Shown: positions 42,504 through 52,437 of the stretch, piece after piece
Layout: every line of letters begins with the position of its first letter
Numbering within the stretch: position 1 is the first letter of the stretch
Source of the DNA: Promethearchaeota archaeon
Lineage (GTDB): Archaea > Asgardarchaeota > Lokiarchaeia > Sigyniarchaeales > SOKP01
Assembly: GCA_048939995.1 (NCBI GenBank)
Contig: JBHLOY010000012.1
Coordinates: 1-64,000 of the forward strand
Direction: 5' to 3'
Length of the DNA: 64,000 bases
The notes under the pieces: model-generated
What the model was told of the DNA's origin: nothing
The model's database searches: none
Seen by the model: only the letters and a program-made list of their open reading frames with translations
Translations under genes and position numbers: made by a program

Positions 42504-44447
42504 ATGGAAAAATCTGATACTCAACGGATTGGATACTATGCTTGTCAATGAGGAATAAATATTCGTGGAAAAGTTGATTGCAGTAAGCTAGTGGAATACG
42601 CTAAAGATATAGATGGAGTTGTTGTTTCTAAGCAACACAGCTTCCTCTGCACTGAGAGTGGACAAAACGAAATTATCGAAGATATCAAAGAAAAGAAACT
42701 TAGTTGCATTGTTGTTTCTGCTTGAACTCCACGTACTCATGAACCTGTTTATAGAGGATCGATCGCTAAAACTGATTTAAACCCCTATTACTTTCAAATG
42801 GTAAATGTGCGTGAACATTGTTCTTGGTGCACTGAAAGTAATGAAGAGGCTTTAGAAAAAGCTAAAATTCTAGTAAAGAGTGGTATTGAACGTGGAAAGT
42901 TATTAGAAGTCGTTCCAATTAGAACTGTTCCTGTAGAGAAGGCCACTTTAGTTGTGGGTGGAGGAATAGCAGGTATGAATGCAGCTTTGGACCTTGCAAA
43001 TCAAGGAATTAAAGTATATTTAGTTGATAAAAATACAACCATTGGAGGTCGAATGGCGCAATTAGACAGAACATTTCCTACGGACGACTGTGCTATTTGA
43101 ATTTGCGGGCCTAAGATGCTTGAAGTAAATCGTAATGAAAATATTGAGATTCTTAGTTATTCAGAAGTTAAAAAAGTCGAAGGTTATGTGGGTAATTACG
43201 AAATTACTATTGAAAAGAAGCCTCGATATATAAATCCAGAAACTTGTAACGGATGTGGAGCCTGCGCAGAAGTCTGTCCAACCTACACTACAAATTACTT
43301 TGATGAATATTTAGGAGCAAGGAAAACAATTGATATTGCTTTTGGTCAGGCAGTCCCTTTTCTATATGATGTTAATAGAGATACTTGCGTGGAATGTTTT
43401 AATTGTGTCGATGCTTGTGAGTTAGATGCAATAGATTTCAGCCAAATACCAGAAGAAGTTAAATTTAAAGTTGGAACCATTATCATTGCTACTGGTTGGG
43501 ATATATATGAACCATACGGAGAATACGGCTATGGGGAATATGCCAATGTAATTACCCAATCTCAACTCGAGCGAATGTTGGCTCCAAATGGACCATTAGA
43601 AGGACATGTTCGAAGAATTTCCGATGATAAAAAATTGAATGAGATTGTTTTTATTCAATGTGTTGGAAGTCGAGATACTGAAAGAACTTACTGTAGCGGT
43701 GTCTGTTGCATGCTTGCTTTAAAAAATGGAAAGTTACTTAAGGAAGAATTTCCTGATGCTAATATTACTATTTGTTATATTGACATTAGGACTAATGAGA
43801 AAGGTTTTGAAGAATATTACCAACGAGCTAAGGATTCGGATATTCGAATGATTCGTGGTAAAGTAGGTGAGATTTCAGAAGATCCAGATACAAAAAATGT
43901 TAAGATACGTGTATATTCGTCGTTAACTGATGAAATAATTAACATCGATGCCGATTTAGTGGTTTTGTCAACAGCAGCATTACCATCTAGAGGCACTCAA
44001 CAAATTGCAAAGGTTTTAAATTTAGATACTGATAAAAATGGATTTCTAACTGAATCCCACTTCGGTTTAATGCCACAAGAAACAAAAACTAAGGGTATTT
44101 TTATAGCTGGATTCGCACAAGGACCTAAAGATATCGCATATTCAGTGTCACAAGCAAGAGCAGCTGCGAGTAAAGTTGCCGAACTAACTTCTGCTGGTGA
44201 AATTGATCTCGAATTAATTGTGGCGGAAGTAGATAAAGATTTCTGCATTTCATGTAAAAGGTGTGAAAAGGAATGCCCAAAAGGTGCAATAAAGATTCTA
44301 GACAAAGAGGGAGCTGTTGTAGATGAAATTAATTGTGATGGATGTGGTATATGTGCTTCCTGCTGCCCAACTCGGGCAATTGATATACGATATTACAGAG
44401 ATTATCAGTTATATGCTGAAATTGAAGCACTACTAGGAGGAGATTAA
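42504..44447 (+). CDS. hdrA: heterodisulfide reductase subunit A, selenoprotein with 3 Sec (647 aa)
   Basis: One frame from ATG 42504 with TGA at 42549 (ACQUGINI), 42723 (VSAUTPRTHE) and 43098 (DDCAIUICGPKM); the paralog has CHCGINI, ASCTPRTHE and DCSLCILAPKM. Joins track ORFs 42798-43100 and 43116-44447. Confidence 0.93.
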
Positions 44448-44451
44448 ACAA

Positions 44452-44892
44452 ATGGAGAAAAATTTTAATATATTAATGTTTGCTTGCTTAAAGTGAGGTT
44501 ATAGTGCTGCTGATTTAGCTGGTGTCTCTCGTTTAAAGTATACTCCTTCAGTAAAAATCATAAAAGTTAGGTGCACTGGGCGAGTTGACTTAAAGCACAT
44601 TTTATATGCTATTAAATCTGGAGCTGATGGGGTAATGATAGTTGGATGACGACCAGATGAATGTCAATTTAAGAATGGCAATTTTAAAGCTCAAACTCAT
44701 GTCGATTTAGCCAATAGAATATTAGAACGCAGAGGATTTGGAAACCAGAGAGTTAATCAATATTGGTTAAGTGGTGCTGAATCTGAAAAATTAGTTAAAA
44801 GTGTTGAAGATACAATGGAAAAAGTGAGTCGCATGGGTAAAAATCCTATCCACGAAAAAAAAACAAAAAAAGTAAAAAGTGCAGCCTCTTAG
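44452..44892 (+). CDS. mvhD: MvhD/VhuD [2Fe-2S] protein, selenoprotein with 2 Sec (146 aa; absent from ORF track)
   Basis: AGGAGG SD; MEKNFNILMFACLKUGYSAADLAGVSR...CTGRVD...GADGVMIVGURPDEC; TGA at 44494 and 44647 align with CCNWCSY and GCHIGDC of the paralog at 52000. Confidence 0.93.
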
Positions 44893-44932
44893 AATGACTC
44901 TTATAAAAAAATATTCGTTATAAGATGACTAA
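44889..44932 (+). promoter_or_regulatory. eukaryote-like SECIS element
   Basis: UUAG-A-AUGA-C-UCUUAUAA-[AAAAAUAUUCG]-UUAUAAGA-U-GA-CUAA: 4-bp lower stem, tandem G.A k-turn core, perfect 8-bp upper stem, A-rich loop. Confidence 0.85.
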
Positions 44933-45004
44933 CCATGTGTTGGTGTAGAGGTATTTTAATAGAATTAAATTTCAATTGTTAATAAATAAAATAGAAGAAA
45001 AAAT

Positions 45005-46504
45005 ATGGTACAGGTTGTGAATGAGAAATCATTCAGTGGAATTTCTCCAAAAAATTTGCTTGAAGCAACATTTAAGGCGTCCGAAAATTTCCAAATTAGA
45101 GCTTTTTATGAATCAAAAAAGGAGATATTAAACACATCCAAATATACCGAAAGTGAATTTTTTGAAATATATGATGCAATGTTAGATGCGGAAACAGAAA
45201 GAAGGATTGTCTTAGAGAGGCTTAGAGGAAATAAACCATTATTTTTAGAAGAAATAATTAAGCTTATAAAAGAATTTCCTCCTGATAATGTTGTAAGAGA
45301 TGTTATCTATTTAAAAGAACAAGGTTATATCGAGGAACAGGTCGAGATTAAAACTAAATTAGTCATAAAAAAAATAAAAGGAGAAGAAAAAGAAGTAGAA
45401 GAAAAAGAATATTTTTATAGATATCAAGTGAAAAATTTATCAGAGGATTTTGTTGAAAAATATTTTGAACCCGTTTCAATCGTGTTTGAAGCAGAAGTAT
45501 GTTGTCAATGTGGTTGGTGTTCTTCTATATGTCCAGTGAATGCAATAAGTGTGACATCAGATTTGCTTGAAATTGATGAAGACAAATGTATGAAATGTGG
45601 TTTATGTTTTTCGGTGTGTCCTCGTTCATTTTCAATTGATCAAGCCTATAAAACTATCCGGCAATTGGATAAAAAACTTAATTGGTCAGATAAAATTGGA
45701 GGCTATTTTAATGCGTATTCGGGTTCAACAACAAAAGATGCAATAAAAAAGGTGAAACAGGATGGAGGTGTGGTAACCTCATTATTAGAATACTTATTAG
45801 AGAATAAGTTAGTGGATGCCATAATTGCTGTCAAACATTCAAAGGATTTATGGAAACCTGAACCAGTAATCGTCGATAATGTTAAGGATCTTTACATTAC
45901 TGGTGGTACTAAATATGCAAACGCTGCTACATTATCATTCATCGAAGCAGCTAAAAATTATGAAAGAATTGCTGTCGTGGGAGTACCTTGTATGATGAAG
46001 GCAATTGAAAAAGGTATTCTCTTTCCAAGTGGACTCCCTTTCTTCAAAAATATCAAATATACAATTGGATTATTCTGCATGGAATCCTTTCCTTATGAAG
46101 GAGTAGTACAATTAACTAAAGACAAATTTGATAAGGATATTAATGATCTAACAAAAATGAATATTGATAGTGGAAAATTCATTATTAAATTGAAATCTGG
46201 AGAAGAATTGAGTGTAGATTTGAAAGAAATTAAATCATATGCTCGTCATAATTGTCACTATTGTGAAGATTTAACTTCAGATTATGCTGATATTTCTGTT
46301 GGATCAATAGGTTCTCAAGGAGGTTGGTCTTCAGTTGTTACTCGATCTAAAGAAGGAGATGAGATTTATCAAGGTGCTATAGATGCTGGATTGATTGAAT
46401 CTCAAAGTTTAAAAGATGTAAAACCGGGGCTAGGACTTTTGGAACGAATTGCTGGAACAAAACGAAAAAATTGCAAATTGATTGAACTTAAAAGGAGTGA
46501 ATAA
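45005..46504 (+). CDS. FrhB/FdhB-family protein with N-terminal winged-helix-like extension
   Basis: CCQCGWCSSICP, CMKCGLCFSVCP, 'QDGGVVT', 'GTKY', 'GVPC', 'GLFCME', 'ADISVGSIG'. Confidence 0.9.
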   Translation: MVQVVNEKSFSGISPKNLLEATFKASENFQIRAFYESKKEILNTSKYTESEFFEIYDAMLDAETERRIVLERLRGNKPLFLEEIIKLIKEFPPDNVVRDVIYLKEQGYIEEQVEIKTKLVIKKIKGEEKEVEEKEYFYRYQVKNLSEDFVEKYFEPVSIVFEAEVCCQCGWCSSICPVNAISVTSDLLEIDEDKCMKCGLCFSVCPRSFSIDQAYKTIRQLDKKLNWSDKIGGYFNAYSGSTTKDAIKKVKQDGGVVTSLLEYLLENKLVDAIIAVKHSKDLWKPEPVIVDNVKDLYITGGTKYANAATLSFIEAAKNYERIAVVGVPCMMKAIEKGILFPSGLPFFKNIKYTIGLFCMESFPYEGVVQLTKDKFDKDINDLTKMNIDSGKFIIKLKSGEELSVDLKEIKSYARHNCHYCEDLTSDYADISVGSIGSQGGWSSVVTRSKEGDEIYQGAIDAGLIESQSLKDVKPGLGLLERIAGTKRKNCKLIELKRSE

Positions 46505-46505
46505 G

Positions 46506-47618
46506 ATGAGTTCCAAAACTTTTGAGGATTTAATTAAAGAAGTTCATGAAAAGGGTATCTGCCAAGAATGTGGAGGTTGTGTATCCTTTTGTTCCTCAGC
46601 AGAGTATGATGTAATAGGATTAAAGGACCCATACAAGCCTCCTGAATATATTAATAAAGAAAAATGCCTGGAATGTGGAATTTGTTACCATATTTGTCCA
46701 CAAACCCATATCTTAGATGATGATTTAAATGAGATATATAATTTCTCAGACTTTTCAGCAACTCCTATAGGATATTATGAAGATATCTATTCATGTCAAG
46801 CAACAGATCCAGAATTTTTAAAATATGGAACAGATGGAGGAGTTGTTAATTCTATTATTAATTTTCTAATTGAAAAGAAAATGGTTGATGGTGCAATAGT
46901 ATCTAAAACTGATGCTCCATTTTCCAGAGAAGCAACATTTGCTGATAGTAAATACGATCTATTAAAAGCCTCTGGAGCAAAATTAGATATCACCCCACAA
47001 TTAAATGAAATACAAAAGTTTTGCACCTACACTCATTCTATTCCCGAATTAAATCATTATAAGTTTAAAAAATTAGCAATAGTTGGAACTCCATGTCAAA
47101 TTTATACTATCAGGTGTATGCAAGATTTAGGAGTTACTCCTTCAGAAAATGTTGAAATTTGTCTTGGATTATTTTGTTATGAAAACTTTCTATTTGAAAA
47201 ATTTCAAATTGAGAAATTTGAAAAAGATTTTAATATAAGATTTAGAGACATTGTTAAGATAAATATTAAGGAAGATGTGATTTTTAAATTACGGAGTGAG
47301 GCTCCTACAGAAAAAATTGTACATGTTCCTTTTAATCATTTGAATGATTATATGCGTCCAGCTTGTAATGCTTGTGGGGATTTTACTAATATCTTTGCGG
47401 ATATATCATTTGGAGGTTTAGGGTCTCAAGATAAATATACTACTGTAATAACTCGAACTAAAAAAGGAAAAGAAATCTTTTCTAAAGTTGTTAATGAAGG
47501 AGTAATTACTAGCAAAGAATTAGATGCAACTAAAAGAAAGAAAATGCTAGATTCAATTATAGAATATTCGAAATTAAAAGTATTGCGTAAAGAAAAGTTT
47601 ATGCAGAAATTAACATAA
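46506..47618 (+). CDS. FrhB/FdhB-family protein
   Basis: Two ferredoxin motifs, 'TDGGVV', 'GTPCQ', 'GLFCYENF', 'ADISFGGLG'; ATG 46506 follows AGGAGTGA. Confidence 0.9.
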   Translation: MSSKTFEDLIKEVHEKGICQECGGCVSFCSSAEYDVIGLKDPYKPPEYINKEKCLECGICYHICPQTHILDDDLNEIYNFSDFSATPIGYYEDIYSCQATDPEFLKYGTDGGVVNSIINFLIEKKMVDGAIVSKTDAPFSREATFADSKYDLLKASGAKLDITPQLNEIQKFCTYTHSIPELNHYKFKKLAIVGTPCQIYTIRCMQDLGVTPSENVEICLGLFCYENFLFEKFQIEKFEKDFNIRFRDIVKINIKEDVIFKLRSEAPTEKIVHVPFNHLNDYMRPACNACGDFTNIFADISFGGLGSQDKYTTVITRTKKGKEIFSKVVNEGVITSKELDATKRKKMLDSIIEYSKLKVLRKEKFMQKLT

Positions 47619-47621
47619 AAT

Positions 47622-48878
47622 GTGAGAAGTATAACAGAATCGAAAAGAGATATTGAAAGGAAAAAATTCTTTGGTGATACATTAGATTATTTAGATAAAG
47701 TTTACGAATCTAACCTAAGAAATTTATTAAAAAAATGTTATCAATGTGGACGTTGTAGTAGTGTCTGCCAACTAAGCAAAGTTCAAAAATTTCCCCCAAG
47801 TAGGATTATTCAGTTAATCTTGGAAGGATTTGAAGATAAAGTATTGAATTCTGGGGTTTTATGGGATTGCCTTACATGTAACCAATGTTTAAAAGACTGC
47901 CCAGAAAAAATTAATTTCGCAGATATCGTTAGAATTGCACGATATAAAATGAGACACGAAGCTAATCAAAAATCTGACGATTTAGTTGCTCATAAGGGCA
48001 TTTATACTACAATAGCTGAAATTATGAGTAGACCATACATTACACCAGAAAGATCATTAGAATGGATACCAAAAGATTGCGGCGTGTCAGATAAAGGAGA
48101 TATACTTTATTATATTGGATGTTTACCTTTCTATGAATATGAATTTGAAGGTTCAAATAATATTGCTACAAGTACCATAAAACTCTTATGCCAAATTGAA
48201 AAGAAATCAATAGTAGTTTTGAAAGAAGAAAGTTGTTGTGGGCATGATATTTACTGGGGACAGGGCAAATTGAAGACTTTTATCAAATTGGCAAAGAAAA
48301 ATTTAGATAAATTTGAAAAAGCGGGAGTCTCTACAATAATCACCGCATGTGCTGAATGTTATAGAACTCTTAAAATTGATTATTCGAATATTTTTGAGAA
48401 TTTTTCATCTAAGTTTAAAGTAAAGCATATTATTGAATACATTTATGATAAATGGAAACAAAATGAAATAGCATTTAAGGGACCAGTAGAAGAGGATAAA
48501 GATACCACATTTACCTACCATGATCCCTGTAGGTTGAGTAGATTTTTACCTGAGGAGGTGAATTTAACTAAAAAAATTAGAGAAATTTTTAACGAATTAA
48601 TGAAGTTAGGATTCAACTTTAAAGAAATGAAACACAATCAAGAAAATTCTCTTTGTTGTGGAGTAAATTCATGGATGAATTGTAATGAAAAATCTAAAGC
48701 ACTCAGATATAAACGTATGCTAGAGGCAAAATCAGTAGCAACTATAATGGTTACTTCGTGCCCGAAATGTGAGCTACACTTTAAATGTCTTCAAAATGAT
48801 TTTGAAGATATTGCAAGTATTAAAATCTTGGATTTTTCAGAGTTTATTATAAACAATGTTGAGATAATTGGTACCTAA
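47622..48878 (+). CDS. HdrD-like (HdrC + two CCG domains) Fe-S oxidoreductase
   Basis: CYQCGRCSSVC, CLTCNQCLKDCP; 'CCGH..ACAEC' and 'HDPC..CCG..SCPKC'. Confidence 0.9.
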   Translation: MRSITESKRDIERKKFFGDTLDYLDKVYESNLRNLLKKCYQCGRCSSVCQLSKVQKFPPSRIIQLILEGFEDKVLNSGVLWDCLTCNQCLKDCPEKINFADIVRIARYKMRHEANQKSDDLVAHKGIYTTIAEIMSRPYITPERSLEWIPKDCGVSDKGDILYYIGCLPFYEYEFEGSNNIATSTIKLLCQIEKKSIVVLKEESCCGHDIYWGQGKLKTFIKLAKKNLDKFEKAGVSTIITACAECYRTLKIDYSNIFENFSSKFKVKHIIEYIYDKWKQNEIAFKGPVEEDKDTTFTYHDPCRLSRFLPEEVNLTKKIREIFNELMKLGFNFKEMKHNQENSLCCGVNSWMNCNEKSKALRYKRMLEAKSVATIMVTSCPKCELHFKCLQNDFEDIASIKILDFSEFIINNVEIIGT

Positions 48879-48896
48879 AAGGTGAGAGATAACAGA

Positions 48897-51800
48897 ATGG
48901 AAGGGTCTGTTTTAGTAATAGGCGGTGGTATTGCCGGAATCCAAACTTCATTAGATTTAACAGAATTGGGGTTTAAAGTATATCTAGTGGAGAGAAACCC
49001 ATCAATTGGAGGCCGCATGGCTCAACTTGATAAAACTTTTCCAACAAATGATTGTAGCTTATGTATTTTAGCTCCAAAAATGGTCGAAGTCTTTAGAAAT
49101 TCAAATATAGAACTCATGACATATCATGAAGTATTAAGCATATCTGGGGAAGCGGGAGATTTTACAGTAAATATTTTGAAAAAACCAAGATACATAGACG
49201 AAACTAAATGTAAGGGTTGTGGTGATTGTTCTCAGCGCTGTCCTAAAATAGAAGTACCAAATCTATTTGATATGAAATTAGGTAAAAGAAAATCCATTTA
49301 TATCCCCTTTCCACAAGCTGTTCCCCCTATTTATCTAATTGATCCTGAAATCTGTCTTAAATTAACTAAGGGCGTATGTGGTGTATGTGAGAAAGTATGT
49401 AAAGCTGAAGCAATCGATTATGAACAGAAGCCTAAAGAAATTCAAATCAAAGTGGGAGCGATTGTAGTTGCTACTGGTTTTGATATGCCCGCAGAGCGTT
49501 TAACTTCCAGATGGGGTTATCACTATAAAAATGTAGTCAGCGCTTTAGAATATGAAAGAATTCTGTGTGCTTCTGGTCCATTTGGTGGACATGTACTACG
49601 TCCAAGTGATGAAACTGAGCCCGAAAATATAGCTTTTATACAATGTGCAGGATCACGGGATCTACATGAAAATATTCCTTATTGTTCAAGTGTGTGTTGT
49701 ATGTATACAGCAAAGGAAGCTATTATCACAAAGGAACATTCTGAAAAGTCTAAGTGTTATGTTTTTAGACACGATATTAGAGCCTATGGTAAAAATTTCT
49801 ATGAATTCACCCAAAGAGCACAAGATGAATACGGTGTGCAATACTTTCAGACTAAAGTAAGTAAAGTCGAAGAGGACCCCGATAATAATGATTTAATCAT
49901 GCATTATGAAGATTTAAAAACAGGAGAATTTAAAAATTTTAGAAGTAACTTGGTAGTATTAGCAACACCATTAGTTCCATCACAAGGCACCGTGGAAATG
50001 GCAAAAATTTTAGGGGTTGAATTAGATAAGTATGATTTTTTTAAAGAAAGCTCTTATTTCAATAAATCACTATCGTCTAGGGAAGGTATATATTTAAGCG
50101 GTTTCTGCCAAGGACCAATGGATATTCCAGAAACCGTGGCAGATGCGAGTGGAGTAGCATCTCAAATCGCTTCATTGCTTAATTCTGTAAAGTTTAAAGG
50201 CATAAAAGAAAAACTTCGAGAAAAGTCTGAGTTAGAGGTTAAAATTTCTGATGAACCTCGAATTGGAGTGTTAATATGTCATTGTGGGATAAATATCGGT
50301 AAATATATTGATGTTTCCGAAGTTGTTGAATATGTAAAAACTTTGCCTTATGTAGCTCATTGTGAAGCTAATTTGTATTCTTGTTCAAGTGATTCTCAAG
50401 CAAGAATTAAAGAAATGATTGAAGAATATAATCTAAATAGATTTATTGTTGCTTCTTGTACGCCTCGAACTCATGAAGCTCTGTTCCAAGAAACTTGTCA
50501 AGAGGCAGGTTTGAATAAATATTTGTTCGAAATGGTAAATATTCGTGATCAATGTTCTTGGGTTCATATGAATGAATATGAATTTGCTACCGAAAAAGCT
50601 AAAGACTTAATTAGAATGGCTATTGCAAAAGCACGGTTATTAAAGCCTCTTAAAGAAGCGCGATTAGATATAACTCCAACAGCCTTAATAATTGGTGGTG
50701 GAGTTTCGGGTATGACTGCAGCTTTAAATATTTCAAATCAGGGATTTAAAGTATTTTTAGTGGAGAAAGAAAACCAATTAGGCGGAAATTTAAATCGATT
50801 AAATATTTTGTACCCCATTCATGAAGATGCTTCAAAATTTTTAAAAGATATAACGGGTCAAGTAAAAAGCAATAAAAATATTGAATTATATTTAAACTCT
50901 CAAATTAAGAGTATAAAAGGTTATATTGGTAATTATGATGTTTCAATCGTCGACTCAAAACAGAAAATTCATGATTTAAAAATTGGTACGATTATAGTAG
51001 CAACTGGGGCTCAAGAATTAAAACCAACGGGGGTATTTCAATATAATGAAAAAAATGAAAATGTTATTACTCAGCTTGAGTTGGAAAAAAAACTAAAAAG
51101 CAAAGATTTATCATGGTTAGATAAAATTGAAAGAGCAGCAATAATTTTATGCGTAAACGCAAGGCAAAAGGAGGGAATTACATATTGTTCTAACGTTTGC
51201 TGTGGAGTAAGTATTAAGAATCTAAGTCTGTTAAAAGAATTAAAGCCTGAAATTGAGATTGTTGTTCTTTACAGAGATTTTCAAATGGCTAAAAAAGAAT
51301 TTGAGGAGTATTATCGTGAGCGTAGGAAGAATGCTATTTTTCTTAGATACGATTTAGAAAACTTGCCAAAAATTGATAAATTAAATGATAAACCAGAAAA
51401 GTACAGAATTAGTTTATTTGATACAAATTTACAAGATGATATTAATTTTGATACAGATCTAATTATATTATCAACTCCTATGGTTCCTAATAACAATTTG
51501 ACAGAATTAGCAAAAATGCTAAAAGTACCTCTAGATAAAAATGGATTTTTTTTGGAAGCACATGTAAAGCTTCGACCTTTAGATTTTGCTACTGATGGAA
51601 TATTTTTAAGTGGCTGTGCTCAATGGCCGAAAAATGTTCAAGATTCTATCGCTCAAGCAAATGGTGCTGCTGGAAGGGCTAGTAGATTTTTAAGCGCAAA
51701 AACGATAACAACTTCTGGCTTAATAGCAGAAGTGAATACAAATAGATGCATTGGTTGTGGAAAATGCGAATCTGTTTGTCCATATAATGCGATTGAGATT

Positions 51801-51980
51801 AAAGAAGCATTAATGGAGTTCGAAGAGATCAGTATAAAAGTAGCAAAATCTTATATAAATTCAGCCTTATGTAAGGGATGTGGTACTTGTGCTGCTACTT
51901 GTCCTAATGGTGCTATTTCAGTTAAACATTATGACTTTGATCAAATTTATGCAATGATAGAATCATATTTATTAGAATAG
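48897..51980 (+). CDS. hdrA: large HdrA-like flavoprotein with two FAD modules (all-Cys)
   Basis: GGGIAG..QLDKTFPTNDCSLC, inserted ferredoxin, internal CHCG/SCTPRTHE/RDQCSW domain, second GGGVSG module, C-terminal ferredoxin. Confidence 0.92.
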   Translation: MEGSVLVIGGGIAGIQTSLDLTELGFKVYLVERNPSIGGRMAQLDKTFPTNDCSLCILAPKMVEVFRNSNIELMTYHEVLSISGEAGDFTVNILKKPRYIDETKCKGCGDCSQRCPKIEVPNLFDMKLGKRKSIYIPFPQAVPPIYLIDPEICLKLTKGVCGVCEKVCKAEAIDYEQKPKEIQIKVGAIVVATGFDMPAERLTSRWGYHYKNVVSALEYERILCASGPFGGHVLRPSDETEPENIAFIQCAGSRDLHENIPYCSSVCCMYTAKEAIITKEHSEKSKCYVFRHDIRAYGKNFYEFTQRAQDEYGVQYFQTKVSKVEEDPDNNDLIMHYEDLKTGEFKNFRSNLVVLATPLVPSQGTVEMAKILGVELDKYDFFKESSYFNKSLSSREGIYLSGFCQGPMDIPETVADASGVASQIASLLNSVKFKGIKEKLREKSELEVKISDEPRIGVLICHCGINIGKYIDVSEVVEYVKTLPYVAHCEANLYSCSSDSQARIKEMIEEYNLNRFIVASCTPRTHEALFQETCQEAGLNKYLFEMVNIRDQCSWVHMNEYEFATEKAKDLIRMAIAKARLLKPLKEARLDITPTALIIGGGVSGMTAALNISNQGFKVFLVEKENQLGGNLNRLNILYPIHEDASKFLKDITGQVKSNKNIELYLNSQIKSIKGYIGNYDVSIVDSKQKIHDLKIGTIIVATGAQELKPTGVFQYNEKNENVITQLELEKKLKSKDLSWLDKIERAAIILCVNARQKEGITYCSNVCCGVSIKNLSLLKELKPEIEIVVLYRDFQMAKKEFEEYYRERRKNAIFLRYDLENLPKIDKLNDKPEKYRISLFDTNLQDDINFDTDLIILSTPMVPNNNLTELAKMLKVPLDKNGFFLEAHVKLRPLDFATDGIFLSGCAQWPKNVQDSIAQANGAAGRASRFLSAKTITTSGLIAEVNTNRCIGCGKCESVCPYNAIEIKEALMEFEEISIKVAKSYINSALCKGCGTCAATCPNGAISVKHYDFDQIYAMIESYLLE

Positions 51981-51999
51981 AAACAAAATGTGAACTTAT

Positions 52000-52437
52000 A
52001 TGCCAAAAGCAAAAACTAAATCAAAAACCGTGCAATTTAATCCCGAAATTTTAGTGTTTTGTTGTAATTGGTGTAGTTATGCAGGGGCAGATTTAGCTGG
52101 GGTTTCAAGGTTCCAATACCCTCCTAATATGAGAATAGTTAGAGTTATGTGCTCGGGAAGAGTAGATCCTGCATTTGTTATAAAGGCTTTAAAGGAAGGG
52201 GCCGATGGTATATTAATAACTGGTTGCCATATTGGTGATTGTCATTATATTTCAGGGAATGAATATGCAAAAGAGCGATTCGAAAGATTACATAGTATTA
52301 TTATTAAGCAACTTGGTATTAATGAAAAAAGAGTAAGGTTAGAATGGGTTTCTGCTTCAGAAGGAAAGCGTTTTGCAGATTTGATTACAGAATTTACAAA
52401 TCAAATCAAAGAATTAGGACCACTTAAAATACTTTAA
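52000..52437 (+). CDS. mvhD: MvhD [2Fe-2S] protein (Cys form)
   Basis: 'FCCNWCSYAGADLAG', 'VMCSGRVD', 'GCHIGDCHY', 'EWVSASEG'. Confidence 0.95.
   Translation: MPKAKTKSKTVQFNPEILVFCCNWCSYAGADLAGVSRFQYPPNMRIVRVMCSGRVDPAFVIKALKEGADGILITGCHIGDCHYISGNEYAKERFERLHSIIIKQLGINEKRVRLEWVSASEGKRFADLITEFTNQIKELGPLKIL

Follow-up and report, generated by a model that had tools for sequence, protein, structure and literature searches.

A candidate selenoprotein gene pair, hdrA and mvhD, with five in-frame UGA codons and one apparently shared lokiSECIS in a Promethearchaeota genome

Introduction

Can a single RNA signal recode five stop codons that are spread over two genes? The question is raised by a locus on contig JBHLOY010000012.1 of Promethearchaeota archaeon (Lokiarchaeia; Sigyniarchaeales; assembly GCA_048939995.1), of which we analysed positions 1 to 64,000, a stretch of 64,000 nucleotides that we refer to as the window. 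At 42504-44932 of the window lie an hdrA gene and an mvhD (vhuD) gene whose frames are interrupted by five in-frame TGA codons, followed directly by a lone hairpin that resembles a eukaryote-like selenocysteine insertion sequence (SECIS) of the lokiSECIS type. The original prediction for this locus was that of a hidden two-gene selenoprotein unit in which one SECIS serves all five codons, and on comparative grounds we regard this as the best explanation and a highly likely one. In this explanation, hdrA and vhuD would be co-transcribed in a Lokiarchaeia-type Asgard archaeon, all five in-frame UGAs would be decoded as selenocysteine (Sec), and the lokiSECIS directly 3' of vhuD would recode UGAs 0.25-2.35 kb away, three of them in the upstream cistron, by means of the archaeal elongation factor EFSec and Sec-tRNA(Sec), probably acting across the stop/start boundary between the two genes.

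Two intact reading frames of known families

The gene pair comprises the following features:

42504-44447, + strand: hdrA, 647 residues with TGA read through, three candidate Sec codons, TAA stop at 44445-44447
42549-42551, + strand: UGA codon 16 of hdrA, motif YACQ-U-GINI, in the CxC Cys motif of the N-terminal domain
42723-42725, + strand: UGA codon 74 of hdrA, motif VSA-U-TPRTHE, at the fourth Cys position of the N-terminal domain
43098-43100, + strand: UGA codon 199 of hdrA, motif DDCAI-U-ICGP, the canonical HdrA Sec position, in CxxU
44436-44442, + strand: Shine-Dalgarno motif GGAGGAG of mvhD, read from the sequence, within the final hdrA codons
44452-44892, + strand: mvhD/vhuD, 146 residues, [2Fe-2S] subunit, two candidate Sec codons, TAG stop
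44494-44496, + strand: UGA codon 15 of mvhD, motif FACLK-U-GY
44647-44649, + strand: UGA codon 66 of mvhD, motif VG-U-RPDEC

Standard open reading frame (ORF) calling returns only fragments of the two genes. Translation with TGA read through recovers both in full, with the five read-through positions of the original prediction (42549, 42723 and 43098 in hdrA, 44494 and 44647 in mvhD) and with no TAA, TAG or frameshift across the 2.4 kb of both frames; the spacing of 4 nt between the genes, which lie on the same strand, is likewise as predicted.

Both products are recognisable members of their families. HdrA matches chain A of PDB entry 9sfi over its full length (E 1e-201; residues 7-645 align with 4-651) as well as 5odc_A (E 2e-195), and its Pfam matches are to Fer4 and Pyr_redox domains, in the architecture of an N-terminal Fe-S domain, a flavin adenine dinucleotide (FAD)/thioredoxin reductase (TrxR)-like domain with an inserted ferredoxin, and a C-terminal ferredoxin. 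Its 768 bits do not reach the NCBIfam HdrA equivalog cut-off of 1100, and the best-scoring NCBIfam model, HdrA2, also matches the separate MvhD at its positions 648-773 and therefore spans a fused MvhD part. MvhD covers the Pfam FlpD profile completely (PF02662, 147.7 bits, profile positions 1-123 of 123), matches PDB 9sfi_K with an E-value of 6e-35, and scores 149 bits against NCBIfam VhuD, under the cut-off of 215.

In-frame TGA codons at conserved cysteine columns

All five TGA codons fall on columns that are occupied by cysteine in the all-Cys paralogues encoded further downstream in the window (48882-51980 and 52000-52437), as had been proposed: where the paralogues read CHCGINI, SCTPRTHE, DCSLCI, CNWCSY and GCHIGDC, the pair studied here reads CQUGINI, AUTPRTHE, DCAIUI, CLKUGY and GURPDEC. 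Alignment to homologues of known structure, a check named in the original prediction, places every TGA on a Cys or Sec column as well. U16 and U74 align with Cys in the HdrAs of both 9sfi and 5odc, U199 aligns with the residue given as X (Sec197) in the HdrA of Methanococcus maripaludis (9sfi_A), and U15 and U66 of mvhD both align with X (Sec) in its VhuD (9sfi_K), so that the 9sfi proteins carry Sec at three of the five sites of this gene pair.

For conservation within the genus, we searched the whole genomes of 30 relatives; the 16 same-genus genomes that proved positive, together with the copy in the window, give a set of 17 orthologues. Their hdrA genes are 80-94% identical and contain three to five in-frame TGAs each, distributed over the Sec/Cys columns 16, 49, 74, 199 and 301. 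Columns 16, 74 and 199 are TGA in every one of the 17, codon 199 is TGA in all 20 homologues aligned, and both mvhD TGAs are kept in all 16 orthologues with downstream DNA; a loss of these codons in relatives had been proposed as evidence that would speak against the selenoprotein unit. The adjacent Cys14 codon toggles between TGT (10) and TGC (7), and the invariance of the TGAs is therefore not explained by low divergence. Ratios of non-synonymous to synonymous codon differences of 0.61, 0.35 and 0.37 in the hdrA segments between and after the UGAs indicate that these segments are under purifying selection. The hdrA stop is TAA or TAG, never TGA, in all 20 homologues examined. Conservation to this degree lies far beyond chance, and with 17 genomes in agreement a sequencing error at the TGAs is very unlikely. 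Taken by their sequences, hdrA and mvhD are very probably real selenoprotein genes.

Two columns vary within the genus. At position 49 (42648-42650), where the N-terminal cluster motif has its third Cys, 14 of the 17 orthologues have TGA and three have TGC (this genome, G010 and G007), and column 301 (43404-43406) is TGA in G012 alone. The N-terminal cluster positions would thus hold three Sec of four in most relatives and two of four in this genome.

Selenocysteine machinery and a tRNA-Sec with putative introns

The genome is predicted to encode a complete archaeal Sec machinery (tRNA-Sec, PSTK, SepSecS, EFSec and SelD), so that each component for which a genome search had been suggested has a candidate, and the absence that would have spoken against Sec decoding is not observed:

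C23:108323: EFSec, 237 bits; the next family, EF-Tu, scores 136 bits
C23:113475-113628: tRNA-Sec with two putative introns, directly upstream of SepSecS
C23:113854: SepSecS, 374 bits
C37:88829: PSTK, 162 bits
C11:4162: SelD, 188 bits, predicted to contain Sec itself (one in-frame TGA)

PSTK and EFSec are assigned by their best-scoring families, at scores under the NCBIfam equivalog cut-offs (162 against 290 and 237 against 242 bits, respectively).

The tRNA-Sec gene was found neither by ARAGORN, with and without its intron mode, nor by Rfam RF01852 in searches of the whole genome, where the top RF01852 match is a tRNA-Arg. We located it through a 26.7-bit Rfam match beside SepSecS, which is 95-97% identical over 58 nt to the intron-less tRNA-Sec of relatives, and by comparison with the latter. 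Two putative introns account for its having been missed by the tRNA finders, one of 34 nt in the D arm (113491-113524) and one of 30 nt in the T loop (113584-113613); splicing them out in silico leaves a 90-nt RNA with a D stem of 7 bp and a 9/4 acceptor/T fold, which ARAGORN reports as tRNA-SeC(tca). Among the tRNA-Sec genes of the genus, the intron-bearing form occurs in some genomes and no intron in others. In the tRNA-Sec originally described for Lokiarchaeota the T loop holds an intron, and EFSec is encoded on the other strand, a few kb further upstream (Mariotti et al., 2016; PMC4989117), both of which are also the case here; relative to that description, in which the T-loop intron stands alone, the D-arm intron is additional. 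The two-intron tRNA-Sec is possibly new, and it is a caution that such genes can escape detection.

A single lokiSECIS behind mvhD

The SECIS consists of:

44894-44928, + strand: lokiSECIS core, with AUGA at 44894-97, 9-nt stem arms at 44898-906 and 44918-926, and the 3' GA at 44927-28
44907-917, + strand: apical loop of the core, 11 nt, AAAAAUAUUCG

The core lies directly 3' of the mvhD stop and reads AUGA-CUCUUAUAA-AAAAAUAUUCG-UUAUAAGAU-GA, an exact fit to the published lokiSECIS pattern of AUGA, a 9-bp stem, an 11-nt loop that starts with A's and ends in G, and GA. With filters off, a covariance model finds one match in the whole 64-kb window (44891-44931, 60.4 bits, E 3e-12) and no second SECIS, the next best hit having 13 bits and an E-value of about 1. 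The AUGA at 44894 is 2345 nt from the first UGA, in agreement with the sole hairpin at about 2.3 kb that had originally been noted. A scan of the genome by regular expression (AUGA, 9-nt stem, loop, GA) proved uninformative, with 10 matches against 6-11 in shuffled genomes, and covariance models were used in its stead.

The stem is supported by covariation. In an alignment of 18 SECIS elements, both partners change in seven of the nine stem pairs, and 93.8% of stem cells pair, compared to 39-51% after the partner has been shifted by one to three columns; the observed covariation score was reached by none of 500 shuffles. The element is found at the same place, with compensatory stem changes, in each of the 16 orthologues with downstream sequence. 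In two of them (L026 of G006 and L028 of G007) AA replaces the 3' GA of the core, and such AUGA_AA variants have been reported, in the sections of Huang et al. that treat them, for some hdrA/frhD genes in Asgard archaea (Huang et al., 2024; PMC11227280).

A probably shared signal for two cistrons

Because only 4 nt separate the two genes and the Shine-Dalgarno motif of mvhD lies inside hdrA, the pair is probably co-transcribed. A recoding signal that belonged to hdrA itself might be visible as a constraint on synonymous sites, and we compared pairwise synonymous differences in 12-codon windows along the 17 hdrA orthologues. The profile is flat (mean 0.49, standard deviation 0.06), with dips only at codons 1-6, the translation start, and at codons 629-647, the ribosome-binding site of mvhD, where the lowest windows have values of 0.175-0.345. 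Just after the UGAs, diversity is slightly under the mean behind codon 16 (0.39-0.42) and amounts to 0.52-0.55 behind codon 74 and 0.50-0.55 behind codon 199, in no case close to the dips at the two gene ends. The 5' region of hdrA shows a short AT-rich block and a Shine-Dalgarno block that is conserved, and nothing further. By the flat synonymous profile and the plain 5' region, there is therefore no conserved RNA element within or ahead of hdrA among these orthologues.

The same architecture recurs in two further hdrA-mvhD pairs of this genome, one on C8, found by the SECIS model, and one at C17:74340, found by direct inspection, and in the 16 orthologous pairs elsewhere. One SECIS in the window, a featureless synonymous profile and this recurrence together favour the inference of the original prediction, that one SECIS recodes five UGAs over two cistrons, as the best reading of the comparative data.

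Several points weigh on the other side. Sec decoding in this organism is predicted from sequence comparison, and we know of no experimental demonstration of an archaeal SECIS acting on an upstream cistron. The SECIS ends only 52 nt ahead of the next gene on the same strand (45005), and may thus lie within a longer operon transcript instead of forming part of a true 3' untranslated region (UTR). The AUGA_AA form of the elements in G006 and G007 also counts against this explanation, and a second SECIS of quite another type would escape the covariance model, although the flat synonymous profile opposes a conserved one. Finally, in the account of Mariotti et al. Lokiarchaeia have no known SECIS-binding protein of the SBP2 kind (PMC4989117).

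Alternative readings of the TGA codons

One alternative keeps the Sec codons and gives hdrA a recoding signal of its own, either a divergent SECIS in its coding region or 5' UTR, or bacterial-like hairpins after each UGA. There is precedent in the Methanococcales, where all selenoprotein genes, including hdrA, have a SECIS of their own, and where one gene of M. jannaschii carries it in the 5' UTR; moreover, the covariance model used here (R1) recognises the lokiSECIS type only. Even so, nothing else in the window reaches an E-value below 1 with filters off or belongs to any Rfam family, synonymous diversity is uniform up to the gene ends, the upstream region holds just the Shine-Dalgarno and AT-rich blocks, and the hdrA-vhuD spacer leaves merely 4 nt. 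We consider a separate hdrA signal improbable.

Still further from the data are the two readings that dispense with Sec. If the TGAs truly stopped translation, the two genes would be pseudogenes in decay, or the 443-residue ORF from 43116 would be the only part made, as the fragments from standard ORF calling and the truncation of such genes in public gene calls might suggest; against this stand frames free of any other lesion, TGAs that recur at the same codons in 17 genomes assembled independently of each other, segments that are all under purifying selection, the placement of all five TGAs at Cys columns, and the presence of a SECIS and the Sec machinery. The argument against pseudogenes in the original prediction is thereby strengthened, and we give the true-stop reading practically no weight. 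The other reading takes TGA as a general sense codon for Trp or Gly (codes 4 or 25), and some public gene callers did indeed give W-W for the related double-TGA genes described below. However, TGA ends 16% of the open frames of at least 300 codons in this genome, and its use as an ordinary stop there excludes a global reassignment; the in-frame TGAs are restricted to a handful of genes, without exception beside a SECIS and at Cys columns; the genome encodes a dedicated tRNA-Sec(UCA), SepSecS, PSTK and EFSec; and a search of the genome's tRNAs returned no suppressor tRNA-Trp or tRNA-Gly with a UCA anticodon. A general reassignment is thus exceedingly improbable, and five Sec codons served by one shared lokiSECIS remain the preferred explanation.

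Relation to known HdrA-VhuD systems

An hdrA-vhuD pair with a shared lokiSECIS is an already known type, and the locus is a correct rediscovery of it. In their account of Lokiarchaeota, Mariotti et al. (2016; PMC4989117) describe tandems of HdrA and VhuD that share a lokiSECIS and contain as many as six UGAs along about 2 kb, in which VhuD has two Sec and is always directly downstream, the lokiSECIS is found only after VhuD and the hdrA stop is never UGA; the account of Huang et al. (2024; PMC11227280) confirms the arrangement across hundreds of Asgard genomes. As far as these descriptions extend, the original prediction was right that the type of system is not new, and its inference of a shared SECIS had itself been published. 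Our locus resembles the described tandems in its multi-Sec HdrA that includes the canonical position near 200, in five possible HdrA Sec positions at conserved Cys columns (an agreement by number, not residue by residue), in a two-Sec VhuD directly downstream of a very short spacer with one lokiSECIS just behind it, and in an hdrA stop that is never UGA. Measured against the same descriptions, nothing essential differs; three of the five HdrA positions are used here (16, 74 and 199).

The HdrA(u)/VhuD proteins of M. maripaludis (PDB 9sfi; PMC13518236) are homologous over their full lengths, with Sec at the same HdrA position (Sec197, equivalent to U199) and at both VhuD positions, and with the genes in the same order. 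Methanococcus differs in having one Sec in HdrA, a Methanococcales-type SECIS (GAA_A bulge), one SECIS per gene and a methanogen host, whereas the host here is a non-methanogen whose neighbouring cluster has FrhB-like and HdrB/C-like genes.

With eukaryotic SECIS elements and the SelenoP mRNA, the locus shares a 3' kink-turn SECIS with an AUGA/GA core, an A-rich apical loop, several UGAs at a distance and a lower helix I, and differs by a shorter upper stem (9 bp), an extra hairpin 3' of the internal loop, a polycistronic mRNA and the lack of a known SBP2. The SelenoP mRNA uses two SECIS elements. Judged by its sequence, our element would work like a eukaryotic SECIS but falls outside the Rfam SECIS_1 family; no Rfam family at all, SECIS_1 included, is matched at gathering thresholds anywhere in the window.

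It is unusual for one RNA signal to recode five or six stop codons that belong to two cistrons and extend across more than 2 kb, and such a signal bears on the origin of the eukaryotic Sec system from an Asgard-type ancestor, a point made already in 2016. What the present locus adds is a clean, well-conserved example, firmly grounded in comparison by 17 orthologues, a test of synonymous sites for hidden elements and a covariance model, together with a correction to the chemistry of U199.

Predicted chemistry of the Sec sites

The original prediction expected Sec-ligated Fe-S clusters, including two Sec in the HdrA N-terminal domain. This agrees with U16 and U74, which together with C14 and C49 make up the four Cys-type residues of that domain, where the [4Fe-4S] cluster A3 sits in M. 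maripaludis (PMC13518236); of the four ligands of this N-terminal [4Fe-4S] cluster, U16 and U74 may accordingly supply two. It does not agree with U199. In the M. maripaludis electron cryomicroscopy structure of 2026, Sec197 is part of a Cys-Sec bridge between cluster A3 and FAD and not a cluster ligand (PMC13518236), and this bridge corresponds here to the motif C196-x-x-U199, in which U199 and Cys196 would form a CxxU redox couple adjacent to FAD. In VhuD, U15 and U66 are probably at Cys positions of the [2Fe-2S] site. The Cys ligands of the N-terminal HdrA cluster and of the MvhD [2Fe-2S] cluster are not stated in the parts of the literature consulted.

Helix I and hairpin III around the SECIS

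Beyond the published core, the SECIS of this genus is flanked by two further candidate structures:

44884-44889, + strand: 5' strand of helix I, GCCUCU, overlapping the last mvhD codons and ending just before the TAG stop
44932-44944, + strand: hairpin III, ACCA-UGUGU-UGGU, directly 3' of the SECIS core
44947-44952, + strand: 3' strand of helix I, AGAGGU, followed by a T4 tract at 44954-57

Helix I encloses the SECIS stem-loop in both the minimum free energy and the centroid fold (z = -2.0). A closing helix is also formed, with different sequences, in orthologues and in other families (CCUCU/AGAGG, CCCCAU/AUGGGG, ACUCCC/GGGAGU, UUAUGAA/UUCAUAA, UCCGAAA/UUUCGGA), and across 34 elements duplexes of the native 5' and 3' flanks have a mean energy of -8.7 kcal/mol, compared to -5.1 for mismatched ones. 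Hairpin III follows 2-5 nt after the GA in all 24 elements folded, which comprise hdrA-mvhD orthologues and paralogues, a peroxiredoxin (Prx)-like gene, a small U-terminal ORF and a Sec-Sec family, with a mean folding energy of -4.9 kcal/mol as opposed to -1.15 for random genomic 26-mers. In a 36-row alignment, which was fitted to the model and leans towards structure, two C-G pairs of hairpin III are invariant and one pair covaries (UA 11, CG 9, AU 4, UG 4). A sequence-based alignment of the orthologues only has 68.8% of cells paired with few double changes, so that covariation is weak there. Model R2 finds no SECIS outside the genus at E <= 0.001, and the evidence on hairpin III is confined to the genus accordingly.

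Support for helix I and hairpin III is moderate. They may be a generic 3'-end or termination-stabilising structure that flanks the SECIS and stands outside the recoding signal, a serious contender that falls somewhat short of an even chance: helix I is followed by a T-tract, the fold as a whole has a modest z-score, and the published models, in the sections that present them, require core, upper stem and loop only. Hairpin III, however, starts 2-5 nt after the GA in every folded element, from at least four gene families, and has invariant C-G pairs as well as a covarying one, and the pairing of helix I is specific to the native flanks. A bolder idea, which we put forward tentatively and hold to be rather unlikely, is that the lokiSECIS of this genus is a three-way junction, with a helix I that overlaps the coding sequence at its end and a hairpin III of the form GAC-N2-3-ACCNN-GCR-NNGGU, which would be part of a binding platform for an archaeal SECIS-binding factor and would aid action over more than 2 kb and across the cistron boundary. 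In the text of the SECIS section of Mariotti et al. (2016; PMC4989117), which covers core, stem and loop, neither structure is described, and the words "helix" and "lower stem" occur nowhere in that paper; the text of the model section of Huang et al. (2024; PMC11227280) covers core, upper stem and apical loop, and the word "hairpin" does not occur in the paper, but that study did look at lower-stem composition. Setting aside the figures of both papers, the conserved three-way-junction form is thus possibly new, and helix I and hairpin III are defined mutation targets for the existing Methanococcus SECIS reporter system.

Downstream cluster and other candidate selenoprotein genes of the genome

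The gene pair is followed on the same strand by a cluster in which none of the genes from 45005 to 52437 ends in TGA and no hydrogenase gene was seen among the genes scanned over that interval:

45005-46504 and 46482-47618, + strand: FrhB-like genes
47622-48878, + strand: HdrB/C-like CCG-domain protein
48882-51980, + strand: fused 1032-residue HdrA-like protein, all-Cys
52000-52437, + strand: all-Cys MvhD

The 1032-residue fusion consists, in this order, of a TrxR-like part, an N-terminal-domain-like part, and a second TrxR-like part with a ferredoxin.

By covariance models, the whole genome contains six to seven lokiSECIS elements. One lies behind a short ORF of uncertain start that ends in FRFK-U (C17:215783; L083:1355-1465) and may be VhuU-like, another behind an AhpC/TSA Prx-like gene with a W-U-NHC motif (C17:97626; L086:961-1488), and a further match is found at C36:9830. 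Two paralogous small genes, at C16:9345-9803 (+ strand) and C11:426349-426774 (- strand), have two adjacent in-frame TGAs each, in the motifs HAD-UU-ADN and GC-UU-EKV, and each is then followed by a lokiSECIS. Of 31 related genomes, 24 contain homologous places, 35 in total, and each of these has TGA-TGA. Most database homologues are truncated at about 114-118 residues, and three full-length ones that were examined show W-W at that spot. The candidate Sec-Sec protein has no Pfam match, and a Foldseek search returned nothing at E <= 0.001. Its AlphaFold2 (AF2) model (pLDDT 85.6) has a beta-grasp fold like that of SAMP1, MoaD and CysO (Z 5.9-6.6), and in this model the UU would sit where those proteins end in Gly-Gly.

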